The notes under the pieces were generated by a model. That model worked only from the letters and a program-made list of their open reading frames with translations. It was not told the origin of the DNA and did no database searches. This document shows, one piece after another, positions 24,955-64,000 of a DNA stretch of 64,000 nt; the stretch's first letter is position 1; each line of letters begins with the position of its first letter. The stretch is from Escherichia phage TH12. The position numbers and the translations under genes are program-made. The stretch lies in the sequence record MT446390.1, one strand, 5' to 3'.

Positions 24955-25224
24955 ACGTCTGAATTTGAACGCAGGGTTCACCCTTAAATTGGGAGGTCCT
25001 CTTTGTGTTAAAATTTCTGAAAAGGAATATCACGACGGTTCTATTACAGAAATTTGTCCGCCTATTGTAAAGGCAGACCCAAAACAACTCGTGTGGGTTG
25101 ATTCATTTCAAGTTAAGAAATGGTGGAAACGATGATAACGTGGACAGGTGGCTAATGAAAGACGAACACCCGGATTTTTAAGCTTATGAATGACAAATAC
25201 GAAAAAGTTTAAGGGGTCATATGA

Positions 25225-25398
25225 ATGACGAATTTGACGGATTTTGATAAGATTAAATCTGACAAAAATGAGATGATACTTCAATTTGAAGCCGCTCGTA
25301 TTAAAGCAGAAAATGAAGGTACTATTACCCGCAAGAAAATCAAGTTCACGTCTAGTCGCGAACCTCTGTACGGTGTGTTAATTGGAAAGGAAGCCTAG
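25225..25398 (+). CDS. Small ORF (57 aa), uncertain
   Basis: ATG after AAGGGG; below track cutoff; ends inside terminator hairpin. Confidence 0.35.
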   Translation: MTNLTDFDKIKSDKNEMILQFEAARIKAENEGTITRKKIKFTSSREPLYGVLIGKEA

Positions 25399-25412
25399 TG
25401 CTTCCTTTTTTT
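25387..25412 (+). terminator. Intrinsic terminator
   Basis: aaggaagc-ctagt-gcttcctt followed by ttttt. Confidence 0.6.
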
Positions 25413-25459
25413 GCTTTATATTCTGGATGATAAAATGAACCAACTAATGAGGAAAACAT

Positions 25460-25603
25460 ATGATTATATTTTTAGGTGTGACCATATTGATATTAGCCTT
25501 CTATCTATTCACTAGGGCGTGCTGGATAGGTTTCTTTAGTGCCCCAGATGGATTAATTTCTGTGGTTTTATTTTGCATTGCGATAACGGCGTTAGACTTA
25601 TGA
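25460..25603 (+). CDS. Small membrane peptide (47 aa), uncertain
   Basis: ATG after TGAGGA; hydrophobic; stop overlaps gene 47 start (ATGA). Confidence 0.4.
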   Translation: MIIFLGVTILILAFYLFTRACWIGFFSAPDGLISVVLFCIAITALDL

Positions 25604-30260: not shown

Positions 30261-31223
30261 ATGATTACTATCAATTCCAAAGAACACATTCTAGAACAGA
30301 AATATCGTCCTTCTTCCATTGACGAATGTATTCTGCCTGCGTATGACCATGAAATATTCAAGTCTTTAGTATCTAAAGGAAAACTTCCTCATATTATTTT
30401 GCACTCTCCTTCTCCTGGTACAGGTAAAACAACCGTAGCAAAAGCATTATGTAATGATATCAATGCCGAAATGATGTTCGTCAACGGTTCTGATTGTAAG
30501 ATTGATTTTGTGCGTGGTCCGTTAACTGCATTCGCTCGTTCAGTCTCAATGGAAGGCAAGCCTAAAGTTATTGTTATTGACGAATTTGACCGTAGTGGCC
30601 TTGCCGAATCACAACGTCACCTTCGTACGTTTATGGAAGAATTCTCTAGTAACTGCTCTATTATTATCACTGCTAACAATATTGATGGAATTATTGAACC
30701 ATTACGTAGTCGTTGTCGAGTTATCGAATTCGGTCGTCCGACTGAAGAAGATAAAATCTCGATGATGAAGAAAATGATTCATCGTATGGTTGAAATCTGT
30801 AAGAACGAAAATATCGAAATCGCTGATATGAAAGTTGTTGCAGCTCTGGTTAAAAAGAACTTCCCAGACTTTCGTCGTACAATTGGCCAATTAGACCAGT
30901 ACTCGTCTAAAGGTGTTCTTGATGCAGGTATTCTGTCTATCGTAACTAATGACCGTGGCACAGTCTCCGATGTTATCGAAGCAATGAAGAACAAAGATAT
31001 CAAACAACTTCGTGCATTAGCTCCAAAATATGCTGCAGATTATTCATGGTTCATCGATAAATTAGTTTCAGAATGTTATGATCAAGTTGCACCTGGTAAA
31101 AGTATTATTTCGCTTTACGAAATTGCAGGCGAAAATAATAAGTTTCATGGACTAGCAAGTAATATTGAATTACATGTTATGTATATGCTTCTTCAACTGA
31201 CCTGCGAACTGACTTGGAAATAA
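30261..31223 (+). CDS. 44: Clamp-loader large subunit gp44 (AAA+)
   Basis: Walker [12 protein letters not shown], Walker B VIVIDEFD; 320 aa. Confidence 0.95.
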
Positions 31224-31224
31224 T

Positions 31225-31788
31225 ATGAACTTATTCGATGATGACGTCCAGCTTAACGAGCACCAAATTGCATGGAAGTCTAATGACGCTGATGCGATTC
31301 AAAAATGTGCTGATATGTTTAAAGAAAAACCTGAGAATGAATTCTTTAAAATCATTAATGCTATTAATGAAAAGAAATCTATGTCAATTGCTCAGGTCGA
31401 CTACTCAAAATTTATGGTTGAGAACTCATTATCACAGTTTCCAGAATGTATGCCAGCCGTTTACATGATGAACTTAGTCGGTTCTGAATTAAGTGATGAA
31501 GCGCACTTCAACTATATGATGGCGGCAATTCCACGTGGTCGTCGATTCTCTAAATGGGCTAAACTAGTCGAAGACACTTCAGAGTTACTAGTTATCAAAC
31601 TGTTGATGAAACATTACACAATCAACATGAATGATGCTACCGAGTATAAGCGGCTCCTTGAAAAAAATAACAAGTTGCCAATAGTCCTTAAAGAACTGAA
31701 GGCCATGGTCACTGATGAATTTCTCAAAGAAGTTACTAAAAACGTAAAAGAACAAAAACAATTTAAAAAATTAGCATTGGAATGGTAA
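31225..31788 (+). CDS. 62: Clamp-loader small subunit gp62
   Basis: Directly downstream of 44, upstream of regA as in T4; 187 aa. Confidence 0.85.
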
Positions 31789-31790
31789 AA

Positions 31791-32159
31791 ATGATTGAAA
31801 TTAAATTGAAGAACCCTGAAGATTTTCTGAAAGTCAAAGAGACTCTAACCCGTATGGGCATCGCTAATAACAAAGATAAAGTCCTTTATCAGTCCTGTCA
31901 TATCCTCCAAAAGCAAGGTAAATATTACATCGTCCACTTTAAAGAAATGCTGCGTATGGACGGACGTCAGGTTGATATTGATGGTGAAGACTATCAGCGA
32001 CGTGATTCGATTGCTCAGCTGCTTGAAGACTGGGGATTGATTGTTATTGAAGACTCTGCTCGTGAAGATCTGTTTGGCCTGACTAATAACTTCCGTGTTA
32101 TCTCTTTTAAACAGAAAGATGACTGGACTTTGAAAGCAAAATACACAATTGGTAATTAA
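31791..32159 (+). CDS. regA: Translational repressor RegA
   Basis: MIEIKLKNPEDFLKVKETLTRMGIANNKDKVLYQSCHILQK...NNFRVISFKQK matches T4 RegA; 122 aa. Confidence 0.9.
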   Translation: MIEIKLKNPEDFLKVKETLTRMGIANNKDKVLYQSCHILQKQGKYYIVHFKEMLRMDGRQVDIDGEDYQRRDSIAQLLEDWGLIVIEDSAREDLFGLTNNFRVISFKQKDDWTLKAKYTIGN

Positions 32160-32162
32160 AGC

Positions 32163-32193
32163 AATGGGACTTCGGTCCCATTTGGAGTATAAT
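32163..32193 (+). promoter_or_regulatory. UUCG hairpin followed by GGAG-TATAAT (-10-like) upstream of gene 43
   Basis: aatgggac-ttcg-gtcccatt 32163-32182; tataat 32188-32193. Confidence 0.45.
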
Positions 32194-32240
32194 AAGTTCA
32201 TCAACAAACAAAAGACAATAACTCGTCTAAAGGAAATTAA

Positions 32241-34952
32241 ATGAAAGAATTTTACTTAACGGTTGAACAGATTGGTGATTCAATTTTTGAACGTTACATC
32301 GATTCTAATGGCCGTGAACGTACTCGTGAAGTAGAATATAAACCATCGTTGTTTGCACATTGTCCAGAAAGTCAGGCTACTAAATATTTCGATATCTACG
32401 GTAAACCTTGTACTCGTAAGTTGTTCGCTAATATGCGTGATGCCTCCCAATGGATTAAACGCATGGAAGATATCGGACTTGAAGCACTTGGCATGGACGA
32501 TTTCAAATTGGCGTATTTGTCTGACACTTATAACTATGAAATCAAATACGACCATACAAAAATTCGTGTGGCTAACTTCGACATCGAAGTAACATCTCCG
32601 GATGGGTTCCCTGAGCCGTCACAAGCAAAACATCCGATTGATGCTATCACCCATTATGACTCAATTGACGACAGGTTCTACGTATTTGATCTATTGAATT
32701 CTCCGTATGGTAATGTAGAAGAATGGTCTATCGAAATTGCGGCTAAGCTTCAAGAACAAGGCGGTGATGAAGTTCCATCTGAAATTATCGATAAAATCAT
32801 TTATATGCCATTCGATAACGAAAAAGAATTGTTGATGGAATATCTCAACTTCTGGCAACAGAAAACTCCTGTCATTTTGACTGGATGGAACGTTGAGTCA
32901 TTTGATATTCCATATGTGTATAACCGAATCAAGAATATTTTTGGCGAATCTACTGCGAAACGTTTATCACCACATCGTAAAACTCGTGTTAAAGTTATCG
33001 AAAACATGTATGGTTCTCGTGAAATCATTACATTGTTCGGTATCTCTGTTCTTGATTACATTGACCTTTACAAAAAATTCTCTTTTACCAATCAACCGTC
33101 GTATTCTCTGGATTACATTTCAGAATTTGAATTGAACGTTGGTAAACTGAAATATGACGGCCCTATTTCTAAGCTTCGTGAAAGCAATCACCAACGATAT
33201 ATAAGCTATAACATCATCGACGTGTATCGTGTATTGCAAATTGATGCTAAGCGCCAGTTCATCAACTTGAGTTTGGACATGGGTTATTATGCTAAGATAC
33301 AGATTCAATCTGTGTTTAGCCCAATTAAAACATGGGATGCTATTATTTTTAATAGCCTTAAAGAGCAGAACAAGGTGATTCCACAAGGTCGTTCTCACCC
33401 GGTTCAACCTTATCCTGGCGCTTTTGTTAAGGAACCTATTCCAAATCGATACAAATATGTAATGAGTTTCGACCTTACATCTCTGTATCCAAGTATTATT
33501 CGCCAAGTGAATATTAGCCCAGAAACAATAGCAGGAACGTTTAAAGTAGCTCCATTGCATGATTATATTAACGCAATCGCTGAACGTCCTTCAGATGTGT
33601 ACAGTTGCTCCCCTAACGGCATGATGTATTATAAAGACCGTGATGGTGTAGTTCCAACTGAAATCACTAAGGTCTTTAATCAACGTAAAGAACATAAAGG
33701 TTACATGCTTGCAGCTCAACGTAATGGTGAAATAATTAAAGAGGCATTGCATAATCCTAATCTTTCTGTTGACGAACCATTAGATGTTGATTATCGTTTC
33801 GACTTCACTGATGAGATTAAAGAAAAGATTAAAAAGTTGTCTGCTAAATCTCTTAATGAAATGTTGTTTAGAGCTCAACGTACTGAAGTTGCAGGTATGA
33901 CTGCACAGATTAACCGTAAATTGCTCATCAACTCACTTTATGGTGCACTTGGCAACGTTTGGTTCCGTTATTATGATTTGCGTAATGCTACTGCAATCAC
34001 AACATTTGGTCAAATGGCTTTACAATGGATTGAACGTAAAGTTAATGAATATCTGAACGAAGTTTGTGGTACAGAAGGTGAAGCTTTCGTTCTTTATGGT
34101 GATACAGACTCTATTTACGTATCTGCAGATAAAATTATTGATAAGGTTGGTGAATCTAAATTCCGTGATACCAACCATTGGGTAGACTTCTTAGATAAGT
34201 TCGCACGTGAACGTATGGAACCAGCTATTGATAAAGGTTTCCGTGAAATGTGTGAATACATGAACAATAAACAACACTTAATGTTCATGGACCGAGAAGC
34301 TATCGCTGGTCCTCCGCTTGGTTCTAAAGGTATTGGCGGATTCTGGACTGGTAAGAAACGTTATGCATTAAACGTGTGGGATATGGAAGGAACCAGATAC
34401 GCTGAGCCTAAACTCAAAATCATGGGTCTCGAAACACAGAAATCTTCGACCCCTAAAGCAGTACAGAAAGCTCTTAAAGAATGTATTCGCCGTATGCTTC
34501 AAGAAGGTGAAGAATCATTACAAGAATATTTTAAAGAGTTTGAAAAAGAATTCCGTCAATTGAATTATATTAGCATCGCGTCGGTATCTTCTGCGAATAA
34601 CATTGCTAAATATGACGTTGGTGGATTCCCTGGTCCTAAATGTCCGTTCCATATTCGTGGAATTCTGACATATAACCGAGCTATCAAAGGTAATATTGAT
34701 GCTCCACAAGTTGTAGAAGGCGAAAAGGTATACGTTCTGCCTTTACGTGATGGAAACCCGTTCGGTGATAAATGTATCGCATGGCCTTCTGGTACTGAAA
34801 TCACAGATTTAATTAAAGACGACGTACTTCATTGGATGGACTACACTGTTCTCCTTGAGAAGACATTTATTAAACCACTTGAAGGATTCACATCAGCAGC
34901 GAAACTCGATTACGAGAAGAAAGCATCTCTGTTCGATATGTTCGATTTTTGA
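32241..34952 (+). CDS. 43: DNA polymerase (family B) gp43
   Basis: 903 aa; N-terminus MKEFYLTVEQIGDSIFERYIDSNGRERTREVEYKPSLF matches recalled RB69 gp43; exo FDIEV, pol motifs DxxSLYPS and YGDTDS. Confidence 0.98.
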   Translation: MKEFYLTVEQIGDSIFERYIDSNGRERTREVEYKPSLFAHCPESQATKYFDIYGKPCTRKLFANMRDASQWIKRMEDIGLEALGMDDFKLAYLSDTYNYEIKYDHTKIRVANFDIEVTSPDGFPEPSQAKHPIDAITHYDSIDDRFYVFDLLNSPYGNVEEWSIEIAAKLQEQGGDEVPSEIIDKIIYMPFDNEKELLMEYLNFWQQKTPVILTGWNVESFDIPYVYNRIKNIFGESTAKRLSPHRKTRVKVIENMYGSREIITLFGISVLDYIDLYKKFSFTNQPSYSLDYISEFELNVGKLKYDGPISKLRESNHQRYISYNIIDVYRVLQIDAKRQFINLSLDMGYYAKIQIQSVFSPIKTWDAIIFNSLKEQNKVIPQGRSHPVQPYPGAFVKEPIPNRYKYVMSFDLTSLYPSIIRQVNISPETIAGTFKVAPLHDYINAIAERPSDVYSCSPNGMMYYKDRDGVVPTEITKVFNQRKEHKGYMLAAQRNGEIIKEALHNPNLSVDEPLDVDYRFDFTDEIKEKIKKLSAKSLNEMLFRAQRTEVAGMTAQINRKLLINSLYGALGNVWFRYYDLRNATAITTFGQMALQWIERKVNEYLNEVCGTEGEAFVLYGDTDSIYVSADKIIDKVGESKFRDTNHWVDFLDKFARERMEPAIDKGFREMCEYMNNKQHLMFMDREAIAGPPLGSKGIGGFWTGKKRYALNVWDMEGTRYAEPKLKIMGLETQKSSTPKAVQKALKECIRRMLQEGEESLQEYFKEFEKEFRQLNYISIASVSSANNIAKYDVGGFPGPKCPFHIRGILTYNRAIKGNIDAPQVVEGEKVYVLPLRDGNPFGDKCIAWPSGTEITDLIKDDVLHWMDYTVLLEKTFIKPLEGFTSAAKLDYEKKASLFDMFDF

Positions 34953-34992
34953 TATAATGCCATGGACGGTAAACTAATTAAATGAGAGAAAT

Positions 34993-35628
34993 ATGAAAAC
35001 TACACCAATCACTATCGCTATTGACGCAATCGTAAAACAAGCTTCATCTCTTGCCACTATGGCTAAAGTAATTAGTCAAAACTCTGCCCGATATAATGCT
35101 ATTCTTGAAACTCTTCGTCGCCCTGGACTGAGTAATTATGAAAGCCGAGTAATTATTACAGGTGTTGGTAAGAACGCTAATATCGCAACTAAAGCTTCCG
35201 AGACTTTTGCTTCACTAGGTATTCCTAGCATGTATTTGAACACCGGGCATTATTCTCATGGCGACGCAGGGTTTATTGCACCTAATGATGTATTAGTTCA
35301 CATCAGTCGTTCTGGTAAGACTGAAGAAATGATAGGTGTTGCTAAACATCTTCGTATGATTCGTCCTCAGGTTAAACAGATTCTGTTACATTGTAACCCT
35401 GACATTCCGCAAGAATACGAAGCTCTTTTTGATTATACGTTCTGTACAGGCATCGCGGTAGAGGTTGATGAGAATTCTCTGGCTCCGACCATGTCCACTA
35501 CATTGTTGTTAGCGCTTATCGATACGTTTGCTATCAACCTTTCGTCTGAACGTGGATTTACCTCTAATGACTTCCTTAAGTTCCACCCTGGTGGTGCACT
35601 AGGTGCCATGTTACGAGGCGAACAATGA
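34993..35628 (+). CDS. SIS-domain sugar-phosphate isomerase (arabinose-5-phosphate isomerase-like)
   Basis: SIS motifs ITGVGKNANIATK, SRSGKTEE, HPGGALG; 211 aa. Confidence 0.8.
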   Translation: MKTTPITIAIDAIVKQASSLATMAKVISQNSARYNAILETLRRPGLSNYESRVIITGVGKNANIATKASETFASLGIPSMYLNTGHYSHGDAGFIAPNDVLVHISRSGKTEEMIGVAKHLRMIRPQVKQILLHCNPDIPQEYEALFDYTFCTGIAVEVDENSLAPTMSTTLLLALIDTFAINLSSERGFTSNDFLKFHPGGALGAMLRGEQ

Positions 35629-35768
35629 AAGCAATAACAATAGGACTTTTACTATTGATGCTTGTCATGACTATCTACTGGAGCTTAACGGCTCCAGTAA
35701 TGATTCCGACTCTTATAATCGGATGGATTATGATTGGACTACAAACAAAGTATGAATGCTTTAACTAG
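35625..35768 (+). CDS. Small membrane peptide (47 aa), uncertain
   Basis: ATGA overlap with SIS gene stop; hydrophobic; below track cutoff. Confidence 0.4.
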   Translation: MKAITIGLLLLMLVMTIYWSLTAPVMIPTLIIGWIMIGLQTKYECFN

Positions 35769-35809
35769 AATAGTGTACAATACACCTACTTACCAATGAG
35801 GACCACAAC

Positions 35810-37495
35810 ATGAAAAAAGCTGTTATTCTTGGTGCTGGACTGGCAACTCGTTTGTATCCAATAACGCACCATATTCCTAAGGTGCTTGTTAACTATAAAC
35901 AAGACACTATTCTGAGCAATTTGTATACAATTTATTCTGACCTTGGTGCAGATGAAATTATTGTAGTAGTTCATTCAAAATTTGTTGAAACTGTTCGAGC
36001 TTATTGTGAGCAAGAAGGGTTCAATGTGACTATTCGTACAGTTGATGAAGCGTATGGTTCTGCTTATGCTCTTGCTAAATTATACAAAGATTTAGATGGC
36101 CATAATGTAATTGTTAACTGGTGTGATATTATTCCTGATTTTGGTTCATGGTCTTGGAATGTTAACGCAATCTATGTTAAGGGTGACGAATGTCGATATA
36201 ATTTCGACGGTGAAAATATCACTAGCGTAGGTTCAACAGGTGGTAATGTTGTAGGAATTTATCAGTTCAAAGACTGGGAATTCTATATGGGTTCTACTGA
36301 TGAGGAAATTCATGAATACTGCAAAGGACGTGATTTCGTAGAATTCCTTTACGGCAGCGCATTCAATAAATCAGAGCTTATGAATCTAATTGATTTAGGT
36401 GATATGCCTAAACTTGAAAAAGCTCATGAAGTTCGTGAACTTAATCGTAGTTTTAATGCAGTTGAAATTGGTGAAGAAACTGTAACTAAATTCGCATTAA
36501 CCGAACAGGGCCGAGCTCTTCAGAAAGATGAGATTTCATGGTATCTTAAAGTGAAATCAGATTCAGTTCCTCAGTTAGTTTCTGTTAATGAAAATAACTT
36601 TGAAATGGAACGCATTAAAGGTAAGCCGGCATTTGAATATATTAAATCCAAATCGAGTCTTGCTCGTCCACAAATTGTTGATGCAATTTTAGATGCACTG
36701 AAATTCAGCACAGACACTTATTTTGTAAGTCCTGAAACTGTTCGTCGTGATTTCACTAAAGAATTCTATACGAAAGTTATTGATCGTTGTGAAAGCATTC
36801 AACCATTGATTGATTCATTTGGTAAAATCACACATGTGAACTACACTAAGATTGGACGTCTGAAGCCAATGCTGAAACAAGCTTTAGAACACCTTATTCG
36901 TTATCATAACCGTTCTCAGGGACAGTACTCTGTTATTCATGGTGACCCGAACTTCAGTAATACTATGATTACTGATAACGGCGAAGTCAAGTTTATCGAC
37001 CCTCGTGGATATTTTGGCGAAACCAAGATTTACGGGCCAAAATTGTACGATGAAGCTAAAGTGCTTTATGCTGTTTCAGGTTATGATGAATTCAATGCTA
37101 ATCCGACCTGGGGACAGTTTACTATTGATGAAACAACTTGTAATGTGACTATTAACATCAATCCATTAATTTACAAATATGGAAAGATGAGTTCGTTTAA
37201 CGAGTATCATCATTTGGCGGTGGCAATTATCTGGATTGCATTAGGTGGTTATTTCAAGAATAATCCACTTAAAGCGGTAGCCGCATATTATAAAGGTATG
37301 GAACTTCTGACTAAGCAATTACGCAACATGGGCCGTGTACTTCAAGACGGCTCTATTAGTTATGACGTAGCAGAACCTGTAACGGCTACTCTGATTACAA
37401 AAAATCCTGGTAAATGGGTACTAACTGATAAAGAAACTGGTGTTTCCTATCGTCCAATCGGTGGCGATATCACTCATCAATGGGAACGAATCTAA
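35810..37495 (+). CDS. Bifunctional sugar-1-phosphate nucleotidyltransferase / APH-fold sugar kinase
   Basis: N-term AVILGAGLATRLYPITHHIPKVLV (NDP-sugar pyrophosphorylase G-loop); C-term VIHGDPNFSNTMI...FIDPRG (APH/choline-kinase-type motifs); 561 aa. Confidence 0.75.
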   Translation: MKKAVILGAGLATRLYPITHHIPKVLVNYKQDTILSNLYTIYSDLGADEIIVVVHSKFVETVRAYCEQEGFNVTIRTVDEAYGSAYALAKLYKDLDGHNVIVNWCDIIPDFGSWSWNVNAIYVKGDECRYNFDGENITSVGSTGGNVVGIYQFKDWEFYMGSTDEEIHEYCKGRDFVEFLYGSAFNKSELMNLIDLGDMPKLEKAHEVRELNRSFNAVEIGEETVTKFALTEQGRALQKDEISWYLKVKSDSVPQLVSVNENNFEMERIKGKPAFEYIKSKSSLARPQIVDAILDALKFSTDTYFVSPETVRRDFTKEFYTKVIDRCESIQPLIDSFGKITHVNYTKIGRLKPMLKQALEHLIRYHNRSQGQYSVIHGDPNFSNTMITDNGEVKFIDPRGYFGETKIYGPKLYDEAKVLYAVSGYDEFNANPTWGQFTIDETTCNVTININPLIYKYGKMSSFNEYHHLAVAIIWIALGGYFKNNPLKAVAAYYKGMELLTKQLRNMGRVLQDGSISYDVAEPVTATLITKNPGKWVLTDKETGVSYRPIGGDITHQWERI

Positions 37496-45437: not shown

Positions 45438-45625
45438 GCAAATTAACTAAAGTTACTTTTATCGGTTGGTTTAAAAGCGGCGAGATGTTCACTAAAGATA
45501 TCATGTTATCAGGTGATCGCGAAGAAATCGAGTGGGTTGCGGTACAACTTGCTGAAGTGAACAAAGCATTAGTTAAAGCATTTGTTAATGACGAGAAAGT
45601 TTTTGAAGCTGATTTCAGAGGATAA
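45434..45625 (+). CDS. dmd: Dmd (discriminator of mRNA degradation; RnlA/LsoA antitoxin)
   Basis: VTFIGWFKSGEMFTKDIML...AEVNKALVKAFVNDEKVFEADFRG matches recalled T4 Dmd; 63 aa. Confidence 0.8.
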   Translation: MSKLTKVTFIGWFKSGEMFTKDIMLSGDREEIEWVAVQLAEVNKALVKAFVNDEKVFEADFRG

Positions 45626-45626
45626 T

Positions 45627-45839
45627 ATGTATTCAACTGTGTTTAAACCATCGACATACGAATTTGCATCAACTACACAATGGAAAGCTCTTATTCTGGA
45701 AGGATGGGAACTAATGATGGACTGCGAAGCATCTGAAAAGTTTCCACACGGCAAAGTGGACTTCGTTAAATTTGCTGTACGTCCGACTAAACGACAAATT
45801 CGTCAAGAAAAACGCAAATTTCGCAAAAGTTTAAAATAG
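45627..45839 (+). CDS. Small basic protein (70 aa), paralog-like to 17072-17242
   Basis: ATG after GAGGA; C-terminal FAVRPTKRQIRQEKRKFRK. Confidence 0.5.
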   Translation: MYSTVFKPSTYEFASTTQWKALILEGWELMMDCEASEKFPHGKVDFVKFAVRPTKRQIRQEKRKFRKSLK

Positions 45840-45899
45840 CTGTTTACAAGCACTACATAATGTGTTACTATCTTTCTATCAACTACAGAGGAAATTGAA

Positions 45900-56455: not shown

Positions 56456-56485
56456 GTTTACAACCAAGGATGGTTGGAGTATAAT
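56456..56485 (+). promoter_or_regulatory. Early promoter with spacer stem-loop (caacc-AAGGAT-ggttg)
   Basis: gtttac 56456-56461; tataat 56480-56485. Confidence 0.6.
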
Positions 56486-56515
56486 CTTTCTATCTTAACC
56501 AAACGGGAAAACATT

Positions 56516-57010
56516 ATGAATATCAATACCACGGCTACTTACATCCTGAAAGACGAAAAACAAATCAACTGGTACAGTGCTTCAGTGCGAGCTTATGAAA
56601 AGTTTTGTGAAATTTTAGGTGCCACTCAAGGTAATAGTTTCACTATTGTTAACTTCATCAAACAAGTTGAAGGCCCTTGGTTATTCTTAGAAATTAAAAA
56701 TTCATATGGTACAATTTCTACTACCGCCCTTCCAAGCACCGACTTTGAACTGTTGATTGAAGAAGTAGAACCCGTTAAAGATATCTGTATTGATATGGAT
56801 ATCACTTGTATGTACGGTACTCTGATTAAGCCTATTGAGCCTACTGATTTGTTGTGTAAATATGTTTCAATTCGACGCCCATTCGCTGGTCCAGTAAATG
56901 GATGGGTAACTGACCAATGGATTGAAGACGATGTTGAACTTCTGAACGTTGTTCATGCAGGTGATTTTAGTGTAGTTCCACGTAGTGCTGTGGTTAATAT
57001 CCTTAATTAA
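56516..57010 (+). CDS. Paralog family member 1 (164 aa)
   Basis: Internal ATG (MNINTT); C-terminal NGWVTDQWIEDDVELLNVVHAGDFSVV shared with next two genes. Confidence 0.6.
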   Translation: MNINTTATYILKDEKQINWYSASVRAYEKFCEILGATQGNSFTIVNFIKQVEGPWLFLEIKNSYGTISTTALPSTDFELLIEEVEPVKDICIDMDITCMYGTLIKPIEPTDLLCKYVSIRRPFAGPVNGWVTDQWIEDDVELLNVVHAGDFSVVPRSAVVNILN

Positions 57011-57013
57011 TGT

Positions 57014-57042
57014 TGTACATCCAAGGACGGATGGAGTATAAT
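57014..57042 (+). promoter_or_regulatory. Early promoter with compensated spacer stem-loop (catcc-AAGGAC-ggatg)
   Basis: tgtaca 57014-57019; tataat 57037-57042. Confidence 0.6.
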
Positions 57043-57072
57043 GAATTCAACTTAAACAAAGAGAGAGAAATT

Positions 57073-57528
57073 ATGATTACTATTGGTGAAATTAAGCGTG
57101 TATCATCTGCATCTCGTTCTAAAGCTGCAGGTCGTCTGGTTGAAGTTGTCGGACTTCGTACTAATGGTACTGGACGTGTTAAAGAAGTTAAAGTTCGAAT
57201 CATTCCTAGTTCCGGAAAAACTGAAACTCAGTACGCTTACGTAAGTCCTAAATTCTTGGAAACTCATGTGAGCGCTCATTTTGCTTCTACTGAACCTAAT
57301 GTACAGTTCAAATGGGCCTTGTGTAAAGGTGTTGAATTCCAGACTGATAAAGAATTTGACTTCATCGATGAATACGGTTATCCAAGCAAAACTGATACTA
57401 TGTGCGGCTTCATTAGTGACCAATGGGTTGAAGATGGTGAAAAGTTATACAATATCGTATTCTTAGGTGACTTCCGAGTTGTTAAAGAATCTGAAATCAC
57501 TCGCTATGTGTCTCCTCGTAAAGCTTAA
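57073..57528 (+). CDS. Paralog family member 2 (151 aa)
   Basis: Internal ATG (MITIGEIK); SRSKAAGRLVEV...GFISDQWVEDGEKLYNIVFLGDFRVV. Confidence 0.6.
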   Translation: MITIGEIKRVSSASRSKAAGRLVEVVGLRTNGTGRVKEVKVRIIPSSGKTETQYAYVSPKFLETHVSAHFASTEPNVQFKWALCKGVEFQTDKEFDFIDEYGYPSKTDTMCGFISDQWVEDGEKLYNIVFLGDFRVVKESEITRYVSPRKA

Positions 57529-57537
57529 GGAATTATT

Positions 57538-57957
57538 ATGAATATTGTAAATCTCTCTACAGGTGATTACGTATATGTATCTGTTGCTTCTCGCTCTAAA
57601 GTTGCCGGGAAGTTGGTTGAAGTTCTTTCTGTGAGTGATCCGGTTTTTGGTCGTAACCAAGTTAAAGTTCGTGATGCTAATGGTAATATTGGCTACGTCT
57701 CAAGCCAGTTCATTGAGCCAGAAGAAAAAGCGTTCAAATGGGGACTATGCAGATCAGTTTCTGTTGAAAAAGACCATGAATTCACTATTGCTGCGGCAAC
57801 TGATGGAACGCCATGGAAAACTAAGCAAATCGGCGGATTTATTAGCGACCGTTGGGTAGAAGATGGTGTTAAGCTTTATAACATCGTTTTCGCTGGTCAG
57901 TTCATGGTAGTTCCTGAATTCCAAATTAAAAAATATAGCCCAGCTGCTTTCGCATAA
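57538..57957 (+). CDS. Paralog family member 3 (139 aa)
   Basis: SRSKVAGKLVEV...GFISDRWVEDGVKLYNIVFAGQFMVV. Confidence 0.65.
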   Translation: MNIVNLSTGDYVYVSVASRSKVAGKLVEVLSVSDPVFGRNQVKVRDANGNIGYVSSQFIEPEEKAFKWGLCRSVSVEKDHEFTIAAATDGTPWKTKQIGGFISDRWVEDGVKLYNIVFAGQFMVVPEFQIKKYSPAAFA

Positions 57958-58826: not shown

Positions 58827-59236
58827 TGGCTAATAAATTCCGCGTTAACTTATGGTACCAATTTAAAGATAAACGTGCCCAAGAAGAGTTTATTAAAAAC
58901 CACACTGATAATGGGATTTATGCACGACGTCTTGGCCTGGAACCATTTAAAGTATTAGATGTTGACCATCTTGGTCGTCCTACTAAAATTGTGACATCTA
59001 CTGGCATGGTTGGATACGCAACAGGCGGTGATATTCTTGATGAAAACTTTATCTGGCTCTCTACTAGTGAAGCAGAGTTTTTTGATGAAGTGGGAAATCC
59101 GTATCAAGCGTCCGAAGAGCAAGATTCTGGTGAACTTGACGAATTGTCTGAATTTCCGGTGATGACAATTACTATCGAAAATAACGACCAGGCATGGTCT
59201 TTGTATCAAATGTTGAAAGCACATTTTAAGGAATAA
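58826..59236 (+). CDS. Hypothetical acidic protein (136 aa)
   Basis: TAATG overlap. Confidence 0.55.
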
Positions 59237-59241
59237 TAATA

Positions 59242-59421
59242 ATGCCGTTATACGACTATAAATGTCAATCTGAAGGTTGTGGCCATGAATATGAAAAAAT
59301 TAAAAGGATTTCTGAACGAGAAAACGATGTTTGCCCTGAATGTCATCGTCTGTCTACTCGTCGGGTTTCTGCTCCTAAACATGTGAACGGTGGTTTTTAC
59401 GACTTACTTAAGAAGGGTTAA
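59242..59421 (+). CDS. Zinc-ribbon small protein (59 aa)
   Basis: CQSEGCGH...CPECH two CxxC pairs; below track cutoff. Confidence 0.5.
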   Translation: MPLYDYKCQSEGCGHEYEKIKRISERENDVCPECHRLSTRRVSAPKHVNGGFYDLLKKG

Positions 59422-59423
59422 TT

Positions 59424-59849
59424 ATGGCTTTTAAAGGTTTTGAAGTTGGTAAGAAATATCGTATTATCAAAGGACAGGAAGATAATTTCTTGAGAATTCT
59501 TAATACGACTGGTAAACGTCTTAATACTAATCTGCATACTACTTTATTGTCCAAAGATTTTATTGTGGAAGAGATGATTGGTTACGGTGTTTCAATGATT
59601 GCTGTAGAAGCCGTAGGCGATTATGGCCGAACTATTCATAGTATGCAAGGTGATATTCTGCTTTATGGTGCAGAATTTAAATTCTTTGAAGAAGTTCAGG
59701 AACCAGATACAGCTGTCGATTTCAAAAAAGGCTCTATAGAATTTGTTGATGGTTCGGTGATCGTATCAGGCGATGTGGTCATTACAGTTAAAAGTGAACA
59801 AGGGCGTTTGGCTGTAATTGATGCACTTCAGAAAATTAAATTTAAATAA
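59424..59849 (+). CDS. Hypothetical protein (141 aa)
   Basis: ATG right after upstream stop. Confidence 0.6.
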   Translation: MAFKGFEVGKKYRIIKGQEDNFLRILNTTGKRLNTNLHTTLLSKDFIVEEMIGYGVSMIAVEAVGDYGRTIHSMQGDILLYGAEFKFFEEVQEPDTAVDFKKGSIEFVDGSVIVSGDVVITVKSEQGRLAVIDALQKIKFK

Positions 59850-59866
59850 GGGCTTCGGCCCTTTTT
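59848..59866 (+). terminator. Intrinsic terminator
   Basis: aagggc-ttcg-gccctt followed by ttttt. Confidence 0.65.
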
Positions 59867-59912
59867 GCTTTAGATTTCGGATGATAGAATACCTTCATAA
59901 CGAGGAGACAAT

Positions 59913-61733
59913 ATGATTAAAAATGAAATTAAGGTATTGTCAGATGTAGAACATATTAAGAAACGTAGTGGTATGTATATTGGTTCTTCTGCTAAAGAAG
60001 CCCACGAGCGTTTTTTGTTTGGTAAATATCAACAAGTTGAATATGTTCCAGGTCTGGTTAAATTAATCGATGAGATTATTGACAACTCGGTTGATGAAGC
60101 TATTCGTACATCATTTAAGTTTGCAAATAAAATTGATGTGCAAATTAAAAATAATCAAGTTTCGGTGGAAGATAATGGACGTGGTATTCCTCAAGGTTTA
60201 GTTACCGACCAAACAGGTGAACAAATTCCTGGGCCTGTAGCAGCCTGGACTATTCCAAAGGCCGGTGGTAACTTTGGCGATGACTCTGAACGCAAGACTG
60301 GTGGTATGAACGGCGTCGGGAGTAGTTTAACTAATATCTTCTCTACGTTGTTTACAGGCATTACGTCAGATGGCGAAAATGAAATCACTGTTAACTGTTC
60401 AAACGGAATGGAAAACAAATCATGGTCTTCTAAGAAATCTAAAGGTAAAGGCACTAAAGTAATCTTCACTCCTGATTTCACTTCATTTGAAGAGCATAAT
60501 TTATCTCAAATTTATTTAGATATTACTTTAGACCGACTTCAAACATTGGCAGTCGTTTATCCTGATATCAAGTTCACATTTAATGGTAAAAAGGTTGATG
60601 GTAATTTTAAACGATTTGCTAAACAATTTGGTGAAGATAACATCATTCAAGAAAATGATAAAGTCTCTATAGCATTCACAACATCACCAGATGGCTTCCG
60701 TCATTTAACTTATGTGAATAACATCCATACTAAAAACGGCGGTCATCATGTTGAATGTGTAATGGATGATATCTGTGAACATCTTTTGCCTGGTATTAAA
60801 AAGAAATATAAGGGTATTGAAGTCACTAAAGCTCGTGTTAAAGAATGTCTCACAATGTTGATGTTTATTAGAGACATGAGCAACATGCGTTTTGATTCTC
60901 AGACTAAAGAACGTTTAACGTCAACGTATGGTGATATTCGTAATCATATCCAATTAGATGCTAAGAAAATTGCTCAGGCACTTCTTAAAAATGAAGCCTT
61001 GATTATGCCTATTGTTGAAGCAGCATTAGCTCGTAAATTGGCGGCAGAAAAGGCTGCAGAAACTAAAGCGGCTAAAAAGGCAACTAAAGCTAAGGTTCAT
61101 AAGCATATTAAAGCTAACCAATGTGGTAAAGATGCAGATACGACATTGTTCTTAACAGAAGGTGATTCGGCAATTGGTTATCTCATTGATGTTCGTGACC
61201 GTGAACTACATGGTGGATTCCCATTACGTGGTAAGGTGATGAATAGCTGGGGTATGTCATATGCTGATATGATGAAGAACAAAGAGCTCTTTGATATCTG
61301 TGCTATCACAGGTCTTATTCTTGGTGAAAAGGCAGAGAATACGAACTATCGTAATATTGCAATTATGACTGATGCCGATCATGACGGCCTTGGAAGTATT
61401 TATCCGGCTTTGCTTGCTTTCTTTAGTAATTGGCCTGAATTGTTTGAACAAGGACGTATTCGCTTTGTTAAAACGCCTGTAATTATTGCACAAATTGGCA
61501 AAACTCAAAAATGGTTTTATACTGTAGCTGAGTATGAAGAAGTTAAAGATACACTGCCTAAGCATAGTATTCGATACATCAAGGGATTGGGCTCACTTCA
61601 GCGGGATGAATATAAAGAAATGATTCAAAACCCTGTGTACGACGTAGTTAAACTTCCTGAAAATTGGAAAGAACTATTTGAAATGCTCATGGGTAACGAC
61701 CCTGAACTCCGTAAAGATTGGATGCTTGGTTAA
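59913..61733 (+). CDS. 39: Topoisomerase II ATPase subunit, uninterrupted gp39/gp60 fusion form
   Basis: 606 aa; GHKL ATPase IDNSVDE...EDNGRGIP...GGMNGVGSS and TOPRIM-like TEGDSA...DADHDG in one ORF. Confidence 0.9.
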   Translation: MIKNEIKVLSDVEHIKKRSGMYIGSSAKEAHERFLFGKYQQVEYVPGLVKLIDEIIDNSVDEAIRTSFKFANKIDVQIKNNQVSVEDNGRGIPQGLVTDQTGEQIPGPVAAWTIPKAGGNFGDDSERKTGGMNGVGSSLTNIFSTLFTGITSDGENEITVNCSNGMENKSWSSKKSKGKGTKVIFTPDFTSFEEHNLSQIYLDITLDRLQTLAVVYPDIKFTFNGKKVDGNFKRFAKQFGEDNIIQENDKVSIAFTTSPDGFRHLTYVNNIHTKNGGHHVECVMDDICEHLLPGIKKKYKGIEVTKARVKECLTMLMFIRDMSNMRFDSQTKERLTSTYGDIRNHIQLDAKKIAQALLKNEALIMPIVEAALARKLAAEKAAETKAAKKATKAKVHKHIKANQCGKDADTTLFLTEGDSAIGYLIDVRDRELHGGFPLRGKVMNSWGMSYADMMKNKELFDICAITGLILGEKAENTNYRNIAIMTDADHDGLGSIYPALLAFFSNWPELFEQGRIRFVKTPVIIAQIGKTQKWFYTVAEYEEVKDTLPKHSIRYIKGLGSLQRDEYKEMIQNPVYDVVKLPENWKELFEMLMGNDPELRKDWMLG

Positions 61734-61747
61734 TTGATAGATGTCCT

Positions 61748-61775
61748 AAGCTCCTTCGGGAGCTTCATTTTAATT
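61748..61775 (+). terminator. Hairpin terminator candidate
   Basis: aagctcc-ttcg-ggagctt then cattttaatttt. Confidence 0.55.
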
Positions 61776-61791
61776 TTAATAAGGCTTAATT

Positions 61792-62892
61792 ATGAAAGTT
61801 ATGTTTATCCCATCTCGCGCAGTCCCATTTAACCCAGAACGTGTACAAGGTGGTCTTGAAGCAGTACATTTAAATGTGTTGAAATATCTTGTGTCCATCG
61901 GTGCTGATATTGATTATATCGGCTTTGATAATGACACATTTGGTGATTGGAAGGTTAATCATCATCCTGTTGGTCATCTGACTAAATTCAGTCTAGGTAT
62001 GAGTTATACTATGGCTCGTAAGATTGTTGAACTAGCCGGCATCCATGAATACGATTTCGTTGTTACTATGGAACCGACTAAACTAACCGTTCAGGCAATT
62101 AAAGACGCAGGTCTCTCTAAAGTTCATAAGAATTTTATGGCAACACCATTTGAACCGGTATCTCGTGGCATTGTTCAAATTTGGGACCAGACTATTCAAA
62201 TTCATAAGAACGGTGGTAAGAGTTATGCTCCTACTAAAGCCTTCCGTGAATTTGAACGTAAATATTGTTATATGACTTCAGGTCTGACTGACAAAATTGA
62301 TTATGATTATTGGCGAGCAAATCCGTTGTTTGAAGCCGAAGATTATCCGGTTATTTGTTTGAATGAGAAACCTGAAGTTCTTCCGGCGACTGATCTGATT
62401 ATTAGTGCACAACGTTATGACACTAAAATGCGTCGTACTGATGTTGCTCTTGAAGCGATTAAAGCACTAGGCGAAAATGGTGCAGGATACTGTCCTAGTA
62501 AATGGGCACCACCGGCTAAGTATCCTGTTATTATTGATGCTCCACACAGTGAAATCATGGAACGTCTTAAAACAGCTAAAGCACTTATTAATACGTGTCC
62601 TGACACAGGTACGGTAGAGAATAGTTCTATTGAAGCCATCTCTAAAGGTGTCCCTGTAATCCAGTTAGTTTTTAAGGATTATCCTCATGCGACATTTGAA
62701 TATGACCCAGATACTGTGCGTGTAGAAATTGATTCCTCTACTCCTAAGAAAGAAGTAGTTGCGCTTTACACAAAAGCTGTATTAGAATTCACTGACACAT
62801 ACGAAGCTCGAGTTAAACGCGCTGAAGCAGTGTGGAAGAAGTATAATCGAGATGCAGTTGTTGCGATGTGGGATAAAATCTTCACAGCGTAA
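61792..62892 (+). CDS. Candidate GT-B-fold glycosyltransferase (possible DNA glycosyltransferase)
   Basis: 366 aa; C-terminal TGTVENSSIEAISKGVPVIQ resembles GT-B nucleotide-sugar-binding E-x7-E region; fold not verified. Confidence 0.6.
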   Translation: MKVMFIPSRAVPFNPERVQGGLEAVHLNVLKYLVSIGADIDYIGFDNDTFGDWKVNHHPVGHLTKFSLGMSYTMARKIVELAGIHEYDFVVTMEPTKLTVQAIKDAGLSKVHKNFMATPFEPVSRGIVQIWDQTIQIHKNGGKSYAPTKAFREFERKYCYMTSGLTDKIDYDYWRANPLFEAEDYPVICLNEKPEVLPATDLIISAQRYDTKMRRTDVALEAIKALGENGAGYCPSKWAPPAKYPVIIDAPHSEIMERLKTAKALINTCPDTGTVENSSIEAISKGVPVIQLVFKDYPHATFEYDPDTVRVEIDSSTPKKEVVALYTKAVLEFTDTYEARVKRAEAVWKKYNRDAVVAMWDKIFTA

Positions 62893-62984
62893 ATCCTGAA
62901 TAGCCTGAGGCACTATTACACATAAGATGATAGATTATATGGTCTTTAGTAATAGTGCCCTAGGAATCTACTGAAGAGAATATT

Positions 62985-63185
62985 ATGAGAACATATAACG
63001 TGGACTTGGAACTTTTTGATAAAGCAGTGCTCCGGGAATTCCGGCTTATCCAAAGATTTTTTGATATCGAGTCAGCAGAGTCCTTTAAAGAACGCTTTAA
63101 AGAAATTCGATATAAAATACAAACCGATACAGCTACTAAAGAAGAACTTCTTGAAGTAGCAGAAATTTTTAAACGTAACTTGTGA
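62985..63185 (+). CDS. Small protein (66 aa), rIIA.1-like by position
   Basis: ATG after GAAGAG; immediately upstream of rIIA. Confidence 0.55.
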   Translation: MRTYNVDLELFDKAVLREFRLIQRFFDIESAESFKERFKEIRYKIQTDTATKEELLEVAEIFKRNL

Positions 63186-63197
63186 TGAGAGAAAAAT

Positions 63198-64000
63198 ATG
63201 ATTATTGAAACGGCTAAAGAAACGATTATTGGTTCTGGTGGTAAAAGCACAGCATTTACTATTCAAGGCAATAGCAAAGTTTATAAGATTTTGTCTAATG
63301 ACCTTTATACAAACAAAGAATTGGCTTGTGTACGTGAATTAATTACAAACTGTATCGATGGACAAATTCTTAACGGTTGCACTGATAAGTTTATTGTTCA
63401 GGCTCCAGGTCGTTTAGACCCACGTTTTGTAGTTCGTGATTTTGGACCGGGTATGAGCGATTTCACCATTCGAGGTAATGACGAAGAGCCAGGAATCTAT
63501 AACTCATATTTTGCTTCAACTAAAACATCGAGTAACGATTTCATTGGTGGATTCGGACTCGGCTCTAAAGCTCCATTAGCATATACTGATACGTTTAACC
63601 TTACGTCTTATCATAATGGTGAAGTTCGTGGTTACGTAATCTACCAAGATGACACAGGTCCACAGATTAAGCCGACCTTTGTAGATAAGATGGGTCCTGA
63701 TGACCGTACGGGTGTAGAAGTAGTTGTACCGGTTAACCCGGAAGATTTTGGAAAGTTTGCATCCGAAATTGCATATGTTATGCGTCCTCTAGGTGATATT
63801 GCAGAAGTTCGTGGTGTTAAAGATATTAAATACTTCCCAGAATTTGATGATGTATATTTGGCCAAGGAAGCTCCATGGGGTGAACGTGGTAATATCATGG
63901 CTGTTTATGGCGGTATTGTATATCCAATCGGAAGTGTTATTAAAGAACAAACATGGATGATGACACGATGCACTACAGCTTATATTAAATTCCCTATGGG
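63198..64000 (+). CDS. rIIA: rIIA protein, 3'-truncated at window edge
   Basis: [55 protein letters not shown]...DFGPGMSDF...GGIVYPIG matches T4 rIIA N-terminal region; open to window end. Confidence 0.95.

Follow-up and report, generated by a model that had tools for sequence, protein, structure and literature searches.

The window analyzed here is the whole 64,000-nucleotide stretch of DNA from Escherichia phage TH12 (MT446390.1), and all features described below lie on its plus strand. At 59913..61733, the ORF list contains a single ORF of 606 aa, with an ATG start and a TAA stop; the longest ORF that overlaps it in another frame is 102 aa. The ORF, a PHROG match and PDB matches identify this locus as gene 39 ('60plus39'), which encodes the large ATPase/TOPRIM subunit of a phage type IIA DNA topoisomerase. 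PHROG 543 ('DNA topoisomerase II large subunit') matches aa 1-604 with E=2e-286. Many records of Mosigvirus, the RB69-like coliphages, match the window at 97-98.6% identity and have the gene order goF - 39.2 - ORF005c - 39 - ORF003c - rIIA.1 - rIIA in common with it. RB69, LF82-4, p000v, phiC120 and Shf125875 all belong to the same genus-level lineage, with a 1821-nt gene and the same flanking genes as in the window. The gene 39 product is identical to gp39 of LF82-4 and 100% identical to gp39 of phage p000v, and gene 39 of RB69 (NP_861694 / AAP75906) has the same 1821 nt and is annotated '60plus39', in a record that notes the T4 split.

The product carries the GHKL, transducer and TOPRIM domains that characterize a type IIA ATPase/TOPRIM subunit. 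The GHKL ATP-binding domain (aa 47-190; 60051..60482) was delimited by Pfam HATPase_c (PF02518, E=3e-11, above the gathering score) and by motif positions, with the N-box Asn in DNSVDE (aa 57; 60081-60098), the G1 box DNGRG (aa 87; 60171-60185) and the G2 box GGMNGVG (aa 130; 60300-60320) located by motif search. The transducer domain (aa 249-385; 60657..61067) corresponds to a match to Pfam DNA_gyraseB (PF00204, E=2.8e-14), likewise above the gathering score, and holds the QTK-loop lysine in the motif QTK (aa 330; 60900-60908). TOPRIM and its C-terminal associated domain (aa 411-603; 61143..61721) were placed by Pfam, by motifs and by structure-sequence alignments. Here, Pfam Toprim (PF01751, aa 411-519) reached 17.5 bits (gathering score 23.1) and TOPRIM_C (PF16898, aa 520-603) reached 27.2 bits (gathering score 29); for phage gp39, scores slightly under these thresholds are usual. 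The sub-threshold scores are compensated by the PDB alignments, in which T6 gp39, ParE and TOP2A match without interruption across this domain. The motif search also located EGDSA with the catalytic Glu (aa 416; 61158-61172), PLRGK (aa 437; 61221-61235) and DADHDG, the DxDxD metal-binding motif (aa 487; 61371-61388), so that the TOPRIM catalytic Glu and DxDxD are both on one polypeptide.

Gene 39 is bounded by predicted expression signals. Directly after the stop of the upstream ORF, the terminator scan, which found 6 candidates where 1.4 were expected, placed a terminator-like UUCG-tetraloop hairpin (AAGGGCTTCGGCCCTT) followed by a T-run (59848..59863). RB69, T6 and T4 have the same hairpin architecture upstream of gene 39, and the fPS-90 record has a terminator annotated at the equivalent place. 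The hairpin is followed by a putative MotA-dependent middle promoter (59864..59890), predicted from the sequence, in which a MotA-box-like TTTGCTTTA (59864-59872) is separated by 12 bp from the -10 element TAGAAT (59885-59890). The assignment of TTTGCTTTA uses the MotA-box consensus of T4. This promoter arrangement is kept upstream of gene 39 in T4 and T6 (TTAGCTTTA ... TATAAT), a 'predicted middle promoter' is annotated at the corresponding place in the fPS-90 record, and MotA is encoded by the window's closest relative. A sigma-70 promoter scan gave no more matches than in shuffled sequence. Gene 39 is probably transcribed from this MotA-type middle promoter just upstream of it. A Shine-Dalgarno sequence, GAGGAG (59903..59908), lies 4 nt upstream of the ATG. 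Downstream of the gene, the terminator scan placed another terminator-like UUCG-tetraloop hairpin (AAGCTCCTTCGGGAGCTT) with a T-rich tail (61748..61765), which is conserved in RB69, Shf125875 and LF82-4.

T4, according to both its sequence record and our reconstruction from that sequence, encodes the subunit in two genes, 39 and 60, and translation has to bypass 50 nt. The window ORF is collinear with T4 gp39 and then gp60: aa 1-474 align with gp39 1-473 at 79.1% identity, and aa 473-604 align with gp60 27-158 at 82.6% identity (~80% to gp39+gp60). No frameshift, internal stop or gap was required to align the ORF to the two T4 proteins, and its product also aligns with an engineered T4 gp39-gp60 fusion (PDB 8yo3_C). 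The T4 break separates two TOPRIM motifs, the EGDSA glutamate (aa 416) and DxDxD (aa 487), and so falls within that domain; a three-way protein alignment with T4 and T6 places the equivalent of the break in the window at codons Ala474-Glu-Asn-Thr477 (61332..61343). At the split, T4 has 71 extra residues, comprised of a 43-aa gp39 tail and a 28-aa gp60 head, plus mobA, which is a pseudogene in T4, and 60.1. Both the window and T6 have a 71-column gap at this site in the three-way alignment, and the window has neither an insertion nor a remnant there by comparison with T4 and T6; the blastn match of gene 39 to T4 is interrupted at window 61333/61397. In the sequence comparison, the gp39 tail, the gp60 head, mobA, ORF 60.1 and the 50-nt gap with its GGA take-off and landing codons were all missing from the window gene.

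The site equivalent to the T4 gene 60 bypass was located by comparison with RB69, T6 and T4, and reads GAC GGC CTT GGA (Asp-Gly492-Leu493-Gly; 61383..61394). T4 has GAT GGA [TAG + 47 nt ... GGA] TTA GGT at the bypass, whereas at 61383-61394 of the window the GGA take-off codon, the stop codon and the 50-nt gap are all missing. Rfam at gathering thresholds and a tRNA scan gave no matches in the whole window, and therefore no known structured RNA or recoding element was found in it. Thus, gene 39 shows neither the two ORFs with mobA between them nor the bypass gap of a T4-type split; it is the single collinear ORF, free of cassette-encoded extensions, that defines an unsplit T-even gene 39.

The same state is found in T6 and T2, whose gp39 is unsplit (605 aa in T6), with GHKL, transducer and TOPRIM in the order seen in the window. 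Window aa 1-604 align to 1-603 of T6 gp39 (cryo-EM structure, PDB 8ylu_C) with 1150 bits, 81.2% identity and one single-residue indel, and with zero gaps across the T4 insertion site. T6, however, belongs to another genus (Tequatrovirus), and its gp39 has ~19% of residues substituted and a C-terminal end different from that of the window.

These comparisons bear out what the first-pass annotation had read from this locus. Its account of T4, with the subunit divided between genes 39 and 60 and a bypass of 50 nt, agrees with the T4 record and the reconstruction, and its description of GHKL and TOPRIM regions contiguous in a 606-aa ORF is supported by the ORF, its domains and the missing T4-specific parts, with collinearity to gp39 and gp60 and no bypass element or frameshift in the alignment. 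Its likening of the gene to RB69-type phages fits both the 97-98.6% identity to Mosigvirus and the 1821-nt '60plus39' gene of RB69. The wording needs correction in one respect: it implied that the T4 break lies between GHKL and TOPRIM, rather than inside TOPRIM. We are close to certain that an RB69-like T-even phage (Mosigvirus) carries its gene 39 here, at 59913-61733, intact and in the unsplit 'parental' state, and nothing speaks against the gene 39 identification.

The 3' end of the gene differs from the rest. Alignments and allele counts distinguish a haplotype linked to a homing endonuclease gene (HEG) in the last ~140 nt (61594..61733). Over this stretch, the window is 100% identical to HEG-positive phiC120 and fPS-90, as against 86-91% to HEG-negative RB69 and Shf125875, both of which are ~99% identical further upstream. 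The window protein ends in ...LQRDEYKEM...GNDPELRKDWMLG, versus ...LEKSEYR.M...GDDSELRKEWMS in the RB69 type. The alignments also delimit a scar-like segment (61723..61749), in which 19 nt that are extra relative to RB69 (approximately 61723-61741) give the new gene end CTT GGT TAA (LG*), and what is left of the original gene end, ATG TCC TAA, follows the new end at 61741-61749. The 3' end is thus 'pristine' in RB69 (…WMS*) and of the HEG-linked haplotype in the window (…WMLG*), where a 19-nt remnant accompanies it. Exactly at the scar site, phiC120 and fPS-90 have a 798-nt gene for an HNH/NUMOD3 endonuclease (gp117 and g003c, respectively), with the same haplotype and the same left junction, LG*, as in the window. 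The 798-nt ORF itself is absent from the window; the intergenic region at 61734-61791 (58 nt) contains no ORF and no HEG. That the endonuclease of these close relatives interrupts gene 39 was considered and rejected: it sits just after the intact gene, and the phiC120 annotation begins the HEG at the gene 39 stop. This HNH/NUMOD3 endonuclease gene is present at the gene 39 3' end in 28 related records, and the HEG-less state of the window is common to only 5 records.

Of the HEG cassette, the window therefore retains the flanking haplotype and the LG* junction and not the endonuclease ORF, and a HEG-linked haplotype with a 19-nt remnant and no HEG suggests a past invasion followed by loss. We favor, with some reserve, the reading that the last ~140 nt and the next 19 nt are what is left of a second, different homing element, a free-standing HNH/NUMOD3 endonuclease gene that invaded here and was then lost, and that the HEG-free allele is presumably resistant to cleavage. 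On the same reading, the same cassette carried ~400 nt of Mosigvirus-type gene 39 into the Tequatrovirus fPS-90, and the gene is a recurrent homing target and a conduit of exchange between genera. If this is true, the topoisomerase large-subunit gene has been hit repeatedly by independent homing elements, despite the RB69/T4 barrier. The 3' end is mosaic, and gene 39 is therefore not ancestral and pristine over its full length.

Whether the unsplit state itself is ancestral can be judged from its distribution. The gene 39 ORF has homologues in 2198 phage records; in an even sample of 60 of them, spanning many genera, 55 matched in a single piece. Only 41 records have a complete T4-type insert, defined as at least 80% of it at one location; the matches listed at this coverage are Tequatrovirus T4 and its close relatives. 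Both S. pneumoniae ParE (7-603) and human TOP2A (10-571) align continuously through both T4 discontinuity points. The literature describes the T4 gene as divided by a mobA insertion (PMC2988022), and the MobA element together with the bypass as a mobile cassette with 'parental' Topo2L genes as its targets (bioRxiv 10.1101/2022.08.31.505936), with T2 and T6 unsplit and T4 invaded by the MobA/bypass cassette (PMC2988022; PMC11461880; bioRxiv 10.1101/2022.08.31.505936). An ancestral unsplit state, as the first-pass annotation had proposed, is therefore supported by the distribution, the continuous ParE/Topo II alignments and these reports, by parsimony from the distribution rather than from a reconstructed phylogeny. 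The proposal does not extend to a pristine 3' end, where the footprint of a different homing endonuclease lies.

The contiguous ORF could instead be a secondary re-fusion, in which an ancestor's MobA/bypass cassette was precisely lost and the unsplit state is derived. Homing endonuclease genes are often gained and lost at the gene 39 locus; at the 3' end of the gene, another HEG has apparently disappeared from the window, and the loss of either the endonuclease or the bypass cassette is reported for some clades (bioRxiv 10.1101/2022.08.31.505936). However, lineages that lost the cassette keep the element-encoded N-terminal extension or a fused ORF (bioRxiv 10.1101/2022.08.31.505936), while the window has no such remnant and no gaps relative to T6 at the insertion site. 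Furthermore, its homR region is of Mosigvirus type, with 59/60 positions identical to RB69 and 43/60 to the T4 cassette copy (49/60 to the T6 sequence), and the gene is unsplit in all 146 of the 146 Mosigvirus records found by a 5' probe, as well as in all sampled ones. We consider a re-fusion very improbable, and an unsplit state that was never interrupted at this site the better account.

An origin of the ORF from a host gyrB/parE or another GHKL ATPase, rather than orthology with gene 39, has a negligible probability. Several records do name the orthologue 'DNA gyrase subunit B', 'parE' or 'topoisomerase IV subunit B', and ParE/GyrB and the N-terminal half of eukaryotic Topo II have the same type IIA ATPase-TOPRIM architecture and catalytic motifs as the window gp39. 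The similarity to these cellular enzymes is, however, remote (E=1.5e-48 for ParE, 4juo_C; E=2e-61 for human TOP2A, 6zy5_B; E=2e-37 for GyrB), compared with 81% identity to T6 gp39 and 80% to T4 gp39+gp60, and this difference refutes a host gyrB/parE identity. The phage subunit is also shorter (606 aa), lacks the additional GyrB domain and is expected to pair with a short GyrA-like gp52, and the ORF occupies the conserved T-even position between goF/39.2 and rIIA.

Equally hard to credit is that the ORF only appears intact, being a decaying or non-functional copy or one that needs recoding elsewhere in the gene: the T4 topoisomerase is dispensable in some hosts and is among the quasi-core genes (PMC2993671), and the RB69 and Shf125875 records have frame-shifted N-terminal stretches, but all catalytic motifs are intact, the conserved N-terminal HIKKRSGMYIGS motif is identical to that of T4 and T6, the protein is matched in full by the LF82-4 and p000v versions, and the 5' reading frame is unchanged in 58 of the 60 Mosigvirus records sampled. 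The protein in the RB69 reference record is 95% identical to the window gp39, and +2 and +1 indels near codon 14 in that record, which are probably record errors, scramble 13 residues. A real N-terminal divergence behind the 95% was rejected, with the RB69 record as an outlier at 91.8%, against 96-99% in 144 other Mosigvirus records.

By analogy with related enzymes, we infer that gp39 is enzymatically active. It would act as one 606-aa polypeptide with GHKL ATPase, transducer and TOPRIM, conventionally translated from its own Shine-Dalgarno sequence and ATG. Homology to the T6 enzyme of solved structure points to an A2B2 type IIA topoisomerase, in which two gp39 subunits combine with two of the GyrA-like cleavage subunit gp52. 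Such an enzyme would cut both strands of one DNA duplex transiently and, with the use of ATP, move a second duplex through the opening. By tblastn, no gp52 homologue was found within the window; in LF82-4, the closest relative, gene 52 lies ~7 kb beyond gene 39, past rIIA and rIIB, a position outside the window, and encodes a gp52 of 441 aa. The T2 and T6 enzymes are two-subunit, and T6 Topo II is without the C-terminal beta-pinwheel and GyrA-box of gyrase and thus resembles eukaryotic Topo II (PMC11461880). No MobA cassette would ever have entered the window gene, unlike in T4 and a few relatives, where it divides the gene within TOPRIM and brings in the 50-nt gap; the ~70-aa TOPRIM insertion of T4 is not needed for activity (PMC11461880). 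Only at its extreme 3' end would the gene have been altered, through a different free-standing HNH/NUMOD3 endonuclease that is no longer present.

The unsplit gene 39 is already annotated and published, and its annotated orthologues number in the hundreds. The first-pass reading is therefore supported but known, and its importance beyond correct annotation is small. The T4 split and bypass are understood, as products of a mobile MobA cassette, by reference to the 'parental' unsplit gene that is well documented in RB69-like, T2 and T6 phages. The window provides one more Mosigvirus example, and studies of MobA homing and bypass could use it for clean comparison or as a naive target sequence. 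A modest addition is that a second homing endonuclease appears to have trafficked through the 3' end of gene 39, leaving its scar here. The co-conversion tract that was apparently moved across genera would illustrate how mosaicism arises in a conserved replication gene.

Gene 39 of the window is a typical phage gp39-family gene and lies clearly outside the T4 split/bypass class. It is a 606-aa ORF (59913–61733, plus strand) with an ATG start and a TAA stop, preceded by a strong Shine-Dalgarno sequence, GAGGAG (59903–59908, plus strand); the longest ORF overlapping it in another frame is only 102 aa. Pfam places HATPase_c at aa 47–190 (E = 3e-11), DNA_gyraseB at aa 249–385 (E = 2.8e-14), and Toprim and TOPRIM_C, both slightly under the gathering score, at aa 411–519 and 520–603. 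In PHROGs, the product matches phrog_543, ‘DNA topoisomerase II large subunit’ (E = 2e-286, aa 1–604). The complete set of catalytic signatures was found: the N-box DNSVDE (aa 57), the G1 box DNGRG (aa 87), the G2 box GGMNGVG (aa 130), the QTK loop (aa 330), TOPRIM EGDSA (aa 416), PLRGK (aa 437), and DADHDG (aa 487).

For comparison with T4 (NC_000866), gene 39 was translated and the coding segments on either side of the annotated 50-nt gap in gene 60 were joined. BLASTP aligned aa 1–474 of the ORF with T4 gp39 1–473 (79.1% identity) and aa 473–604 with gp60 27–158 (82.6% identity), and the two matches are collinear and abutting on the window ORF. In a three-way alignment with T6 gp39, T4 has 71 residues more at the junction than the window and T6, comprising a 43-aa gp39 tail (FEEKEDGEW...RKNL) and a 28-aa gp60 head (MKFVKIDSS...SIK); at this point, both the window and T6 are uninterrupted (...LGEKA-ENT/ENL-NY.NIAIMTDADHDG....). 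At the DNA level, window 59899–61333 matches T4 5342–3911 and window 61397–61724 matches T4 2794–2467, while the ~1.1 kb between the two T4 segments (gp39 tail, mobA, 60.1, gp60 head, and bypass) is absent from the window. The T4 bypass site reads GAT GGA / TAG CCTTCGGGC...ATTGGA / TTA GGT. Since the equivalent window site (61383–61394) reads GAC GGC CTT GGA, direct comparison reveals no GGA take-off codon, in-frame stop or inserted nucleotides there, and the nascent-peptide signal encoded by the T4 gp60 head is absent as well. The first-pass annotation had described a single ORF with GHKL and TOPRIM regions, and the ORF list, Pfam, PHROGs and motifs agree with it; the alignment to gp39 and gp60 that it proposed is collinear and requires neither frameshift nor bypass. 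Its account of T4 was correct as to genes 39 and 60 and the 50-nt gap, but the T4 break falls within TOPRIM, between EGDSA and DxDxD, rather than at a GHKL/TOPRIM boundary.

On the 5′ side of gene 39, a plus-strand UUCG hairpin with a T-run (59848–59863) is followed on the same strand by a candidate MotA-box-like element, TTTGCTTTA (59864–59872), a 12-bp spacer and a candidate −10 element, TAGAAT (59885–59890). This arrangement is conserved in RB69, T6 and T4, and the corresponding region of the fPS-90 record bears annotations for a terminator and a ‘predicted middle promoter’; MotA-dependent middle transcription of gene 39 from a putative promoter is thus a reasonable inference. A second plus-strand UUCG hairpin (61748–61765) stands 3′ of the gene. 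Both flanking hairpins are GC-rich, with a UUCG tetraloop and then a T-rich tail; T4 and T6 likewise have this hairpin type 5′ of gene 39, and the loop of the T4 bypass take-off stem-loop is also UUCG. Terminator-like sites are enriched around gene 39 (6 found versus 1.4 expected). Further upstream, at 56474–57957 (plus strand), three paralogous ORFs of 178, 172 and 139 aa lie in tandem and have in common the C-terminal motif ...FISD.WVEDG.KLYNIVF.G.F.VV...; T4 has one motB at this position. Relatives annotate the 172-aa and 139-aa ORFs as MotB-like transcriptional regulators, and the 178-aa counterpart only as a hypothetical protein.

Window 59000–63500 is 97–98.6% identical over its full length to many Mosigvirus (RB69-like) coliphages, with Escherichia phage LF82-4 as the best match, and has the RB69 gene order: motB paralogues, cef, goF, 39.2, ORF005c, 39, ORF003c, rIIA.1, rIIA. 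The gp39 proteins of LF82-4 and p000v are identical to that of the window. RB69 gene 39 is equal in length (1821 nt) and is named ‘60plus39’ in AY303349; the RB69 RefSeq note already records that an insertion splits the subunit in T4. The RB69 reference (locus L003, NC_004928, 5370–5483) and Shf125875 (locus L010, 494–600) have in common a +2-nt insertion at codon 14 of gene 39, followed by compensating +1 insertions that differ between them. These indels scramble the universally conserved HIKKRSGMYIGS motif, which is intact in T4, T6 and the window and in 58 of the 60 Mosigvirus records sampled, and the RB69 stretch around codon 14 is an outlier at 91.8% identity. The indels are probably record errors; alternatively, they may be real compensated frameshifts.

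Outside the scope of the first-pass claim, the 3′ end of gene 39 carries an endonuclease footprint, a minor but real addition. The gp39 C-terminus is ...RKDWMLG in the window, ...RKEWMS in RB69 and Shf125875, and ...WMSQ in T4 and T6, each followed by the stop. The DNA reads TGG ATG CTT GGT TAA TTGATAG ATG TCC TAA GCTCC... in the window and TGG ATG TCC TAA GCTCC... in RB69; the window thus has 19 extra nt, and the native gene end persists as a relic, ATG TCC TAA, at 61741–61749. At this exact site, phiC120 (locus L004, 3231–4028), fPS-90 (locus L009, 2334–3131), p000v and others have a free-standing 798-nt homing endonuclease gene (HEG), whose product is HNH-like with NUMOD3 motifs (PF07460, E = 4.6e-9). 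The HEG cassette has the same LG-stop left junction as the window, and the HEG ORF itself ends with the native ...WMS and stop. In 100-nt bins, two breakpoints in identity to the window appear around this end. The HEG-less RB69 and Shf125875 are ~99% identical up to ~61590 and 86–91% thereafter; fPS-90, a Tequatrovirus, is 62–79% identical over most of gene 39 and 94–100% over its last ~400 nt, adjoining its HEG. The HEG-linked haplotype in the window spans 61594–61749, covering the final ~140 nt of the gene, the 19-nt remnant and the native-stop relic. The breakpoint pattern bears the signature of homing with flank co-conversion, here across genera, and the ~400-nt fPS-90 tract beside its HEG copy is a Mosigvirus-type co-conversion tract. 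A 251-nt junction probe matched 184 records: about 130 have the RB69-type end, 28 have the HEG, and only five (LF82-4, OLB35, CCU7, phiEC1 and TH58) present the window-like state, with the HEG-linked haplotype and remnant and no HEG. The simplest interpretation is that the HEG once invaded this site and was later deleted, although the window 3′ end may instead be a pre-insertion intermediate.

Across the entire window, LF82-4 is 96–99% identical except for three small variable stretches. Window 5767–6145 (379 nt) and 45615–45875 (261 nt) have no LF82-4 counterpart and encode small ORFs of 60–85 aa with no assigned function, typical T-even variable early-gene filler. At ~25136–25925, ~790 nt that include the 5′ end of the 348-aa gene 47 ORF (25573–26619) have no megablast match to LF82-4, and the HNH endonuclease gene adjoining gene 47 (sbcD-like) in LF82-4 (locus L008, 4212–5027) is absent. 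Here too, a homing-endonuclease site is polymorphic and its flank has diverged. Directly 3′ of gene 39, a 366-aa ORF (61792–62892, plus strand) matches phrog_8302 (unknown function) and has no Pfam match. It is a homologue of RB69 ORF003c, which lies between gene 39 and rIIA.1 in RB69-like phages and is a candidate arabinosyl-hmC DNA transferase with a GT-B fold (PMC6024577); T4 and T6 lack any intervening ORF just before rIIA.1, where gene 60 stands in T4 and the gene 39 end in T6. By DNA polymerase gene 43, LF82-4 (locus L005, 26944–29832; window ~31000–37000 by synteny) annotates an arabinose 5-phosphate isomerase, a phosphoheptose isomerase and a large hypothetical protein (ORF53_52c-like), and the window is ~97% identical across the stretch. 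The RB69-type gene set near gene 43 has been proposed to make the arabinose donor for ara-hmC DNA (PMC6024577).

Homologues of the window ORF were found by tblastn in 2198 phage records. In a sample of 60 spaced evenly down this ranking, the homologue was one piece in 55, from Tequatrovirus, Mosigvirus, jumbo phages and phages of Yersinia, Klebsiella, Aeromonas, Vibrio, Campylobacter and Salmonella (the Salmonella sequences being ~30% identical to the query). The complete T4-type insert (at least 80% of it at one site) was found in only 41 records, those listed at that coverage being T4 and its nearest relatives; diverged versions are scattered among other lineages (S16, a Proteus phage and Acinetobacter phages), as would be expected for a mobile element. 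The ORF aligns with bacterial ParE and human Topo II as a single stretch spanning both T4 discontinuity points. In the literature, the T4 gene is split by mobA insertion ‘as compared to related phage’ (PMC2988022); the topoisomerase has two subunits in T2 and T6 and three in T4, and the ~70-aa TOPRIM insertion of T4 is not needed for activity (PMC11461880). ‘Parental’ Topo2L genes were invaded by a MobA element with a bypass cassette (bioRxiv 10.1101/2022.08.31.505936). A secondary, scarless re-fusion after cassette loss is unlikely, since lineages that lost the MobA element keep remnants (bioRxiv 10.1101/2022.08.31.505936), whereas sequence comparison at the target region found none in window gene 39. 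This region is of Mosigvirus type, matching RB69 at 59 of 60 nt, T6 at 49 and the T4 cassette copy at 43. The distribution argues for an ancestral unsplit gene 39 and the literature agrees; together with the ParE/Topo II alignment they support the first-pass interpretation, and the RB69-type state that it proposed accords with Mosigvirus identity, gene order and the ‘60plus39’ annotation. Both the unsplit gene and its interpretation are already known from the RB69 record annotation and the T2/T6/T4/MobA literature.

Residues 1–604 of the ORF align to T6 gp39 1–603 with 1150 bits and 81% identity (PDB 8ylu and others), and the engineered T4 gp39–gp60 fusion (8yo3) was also matched. Cryo-EM structures and relaxation activity of T6 gp39 have been published (PMC11461880). 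No gene 52 homologue was found by tblastn in the 64-kb window; in LF82-4, gene 39 and gene 52 are ~7 kb apart, with rIIA, rIIB, denB and ndd between them. By homology, gp39 would pair with gp52, two subunits of each, in an A2B2 type IIA topoisomerase. In such an enzyme, ATP would cause the GHKL domains to dimerize, the lysine of the transducer QTK loop would sense the gamma-phosphate, and the acidic residues of TOPRIM would bind Mg2+ for cleavage by the gp52 tyrosine.
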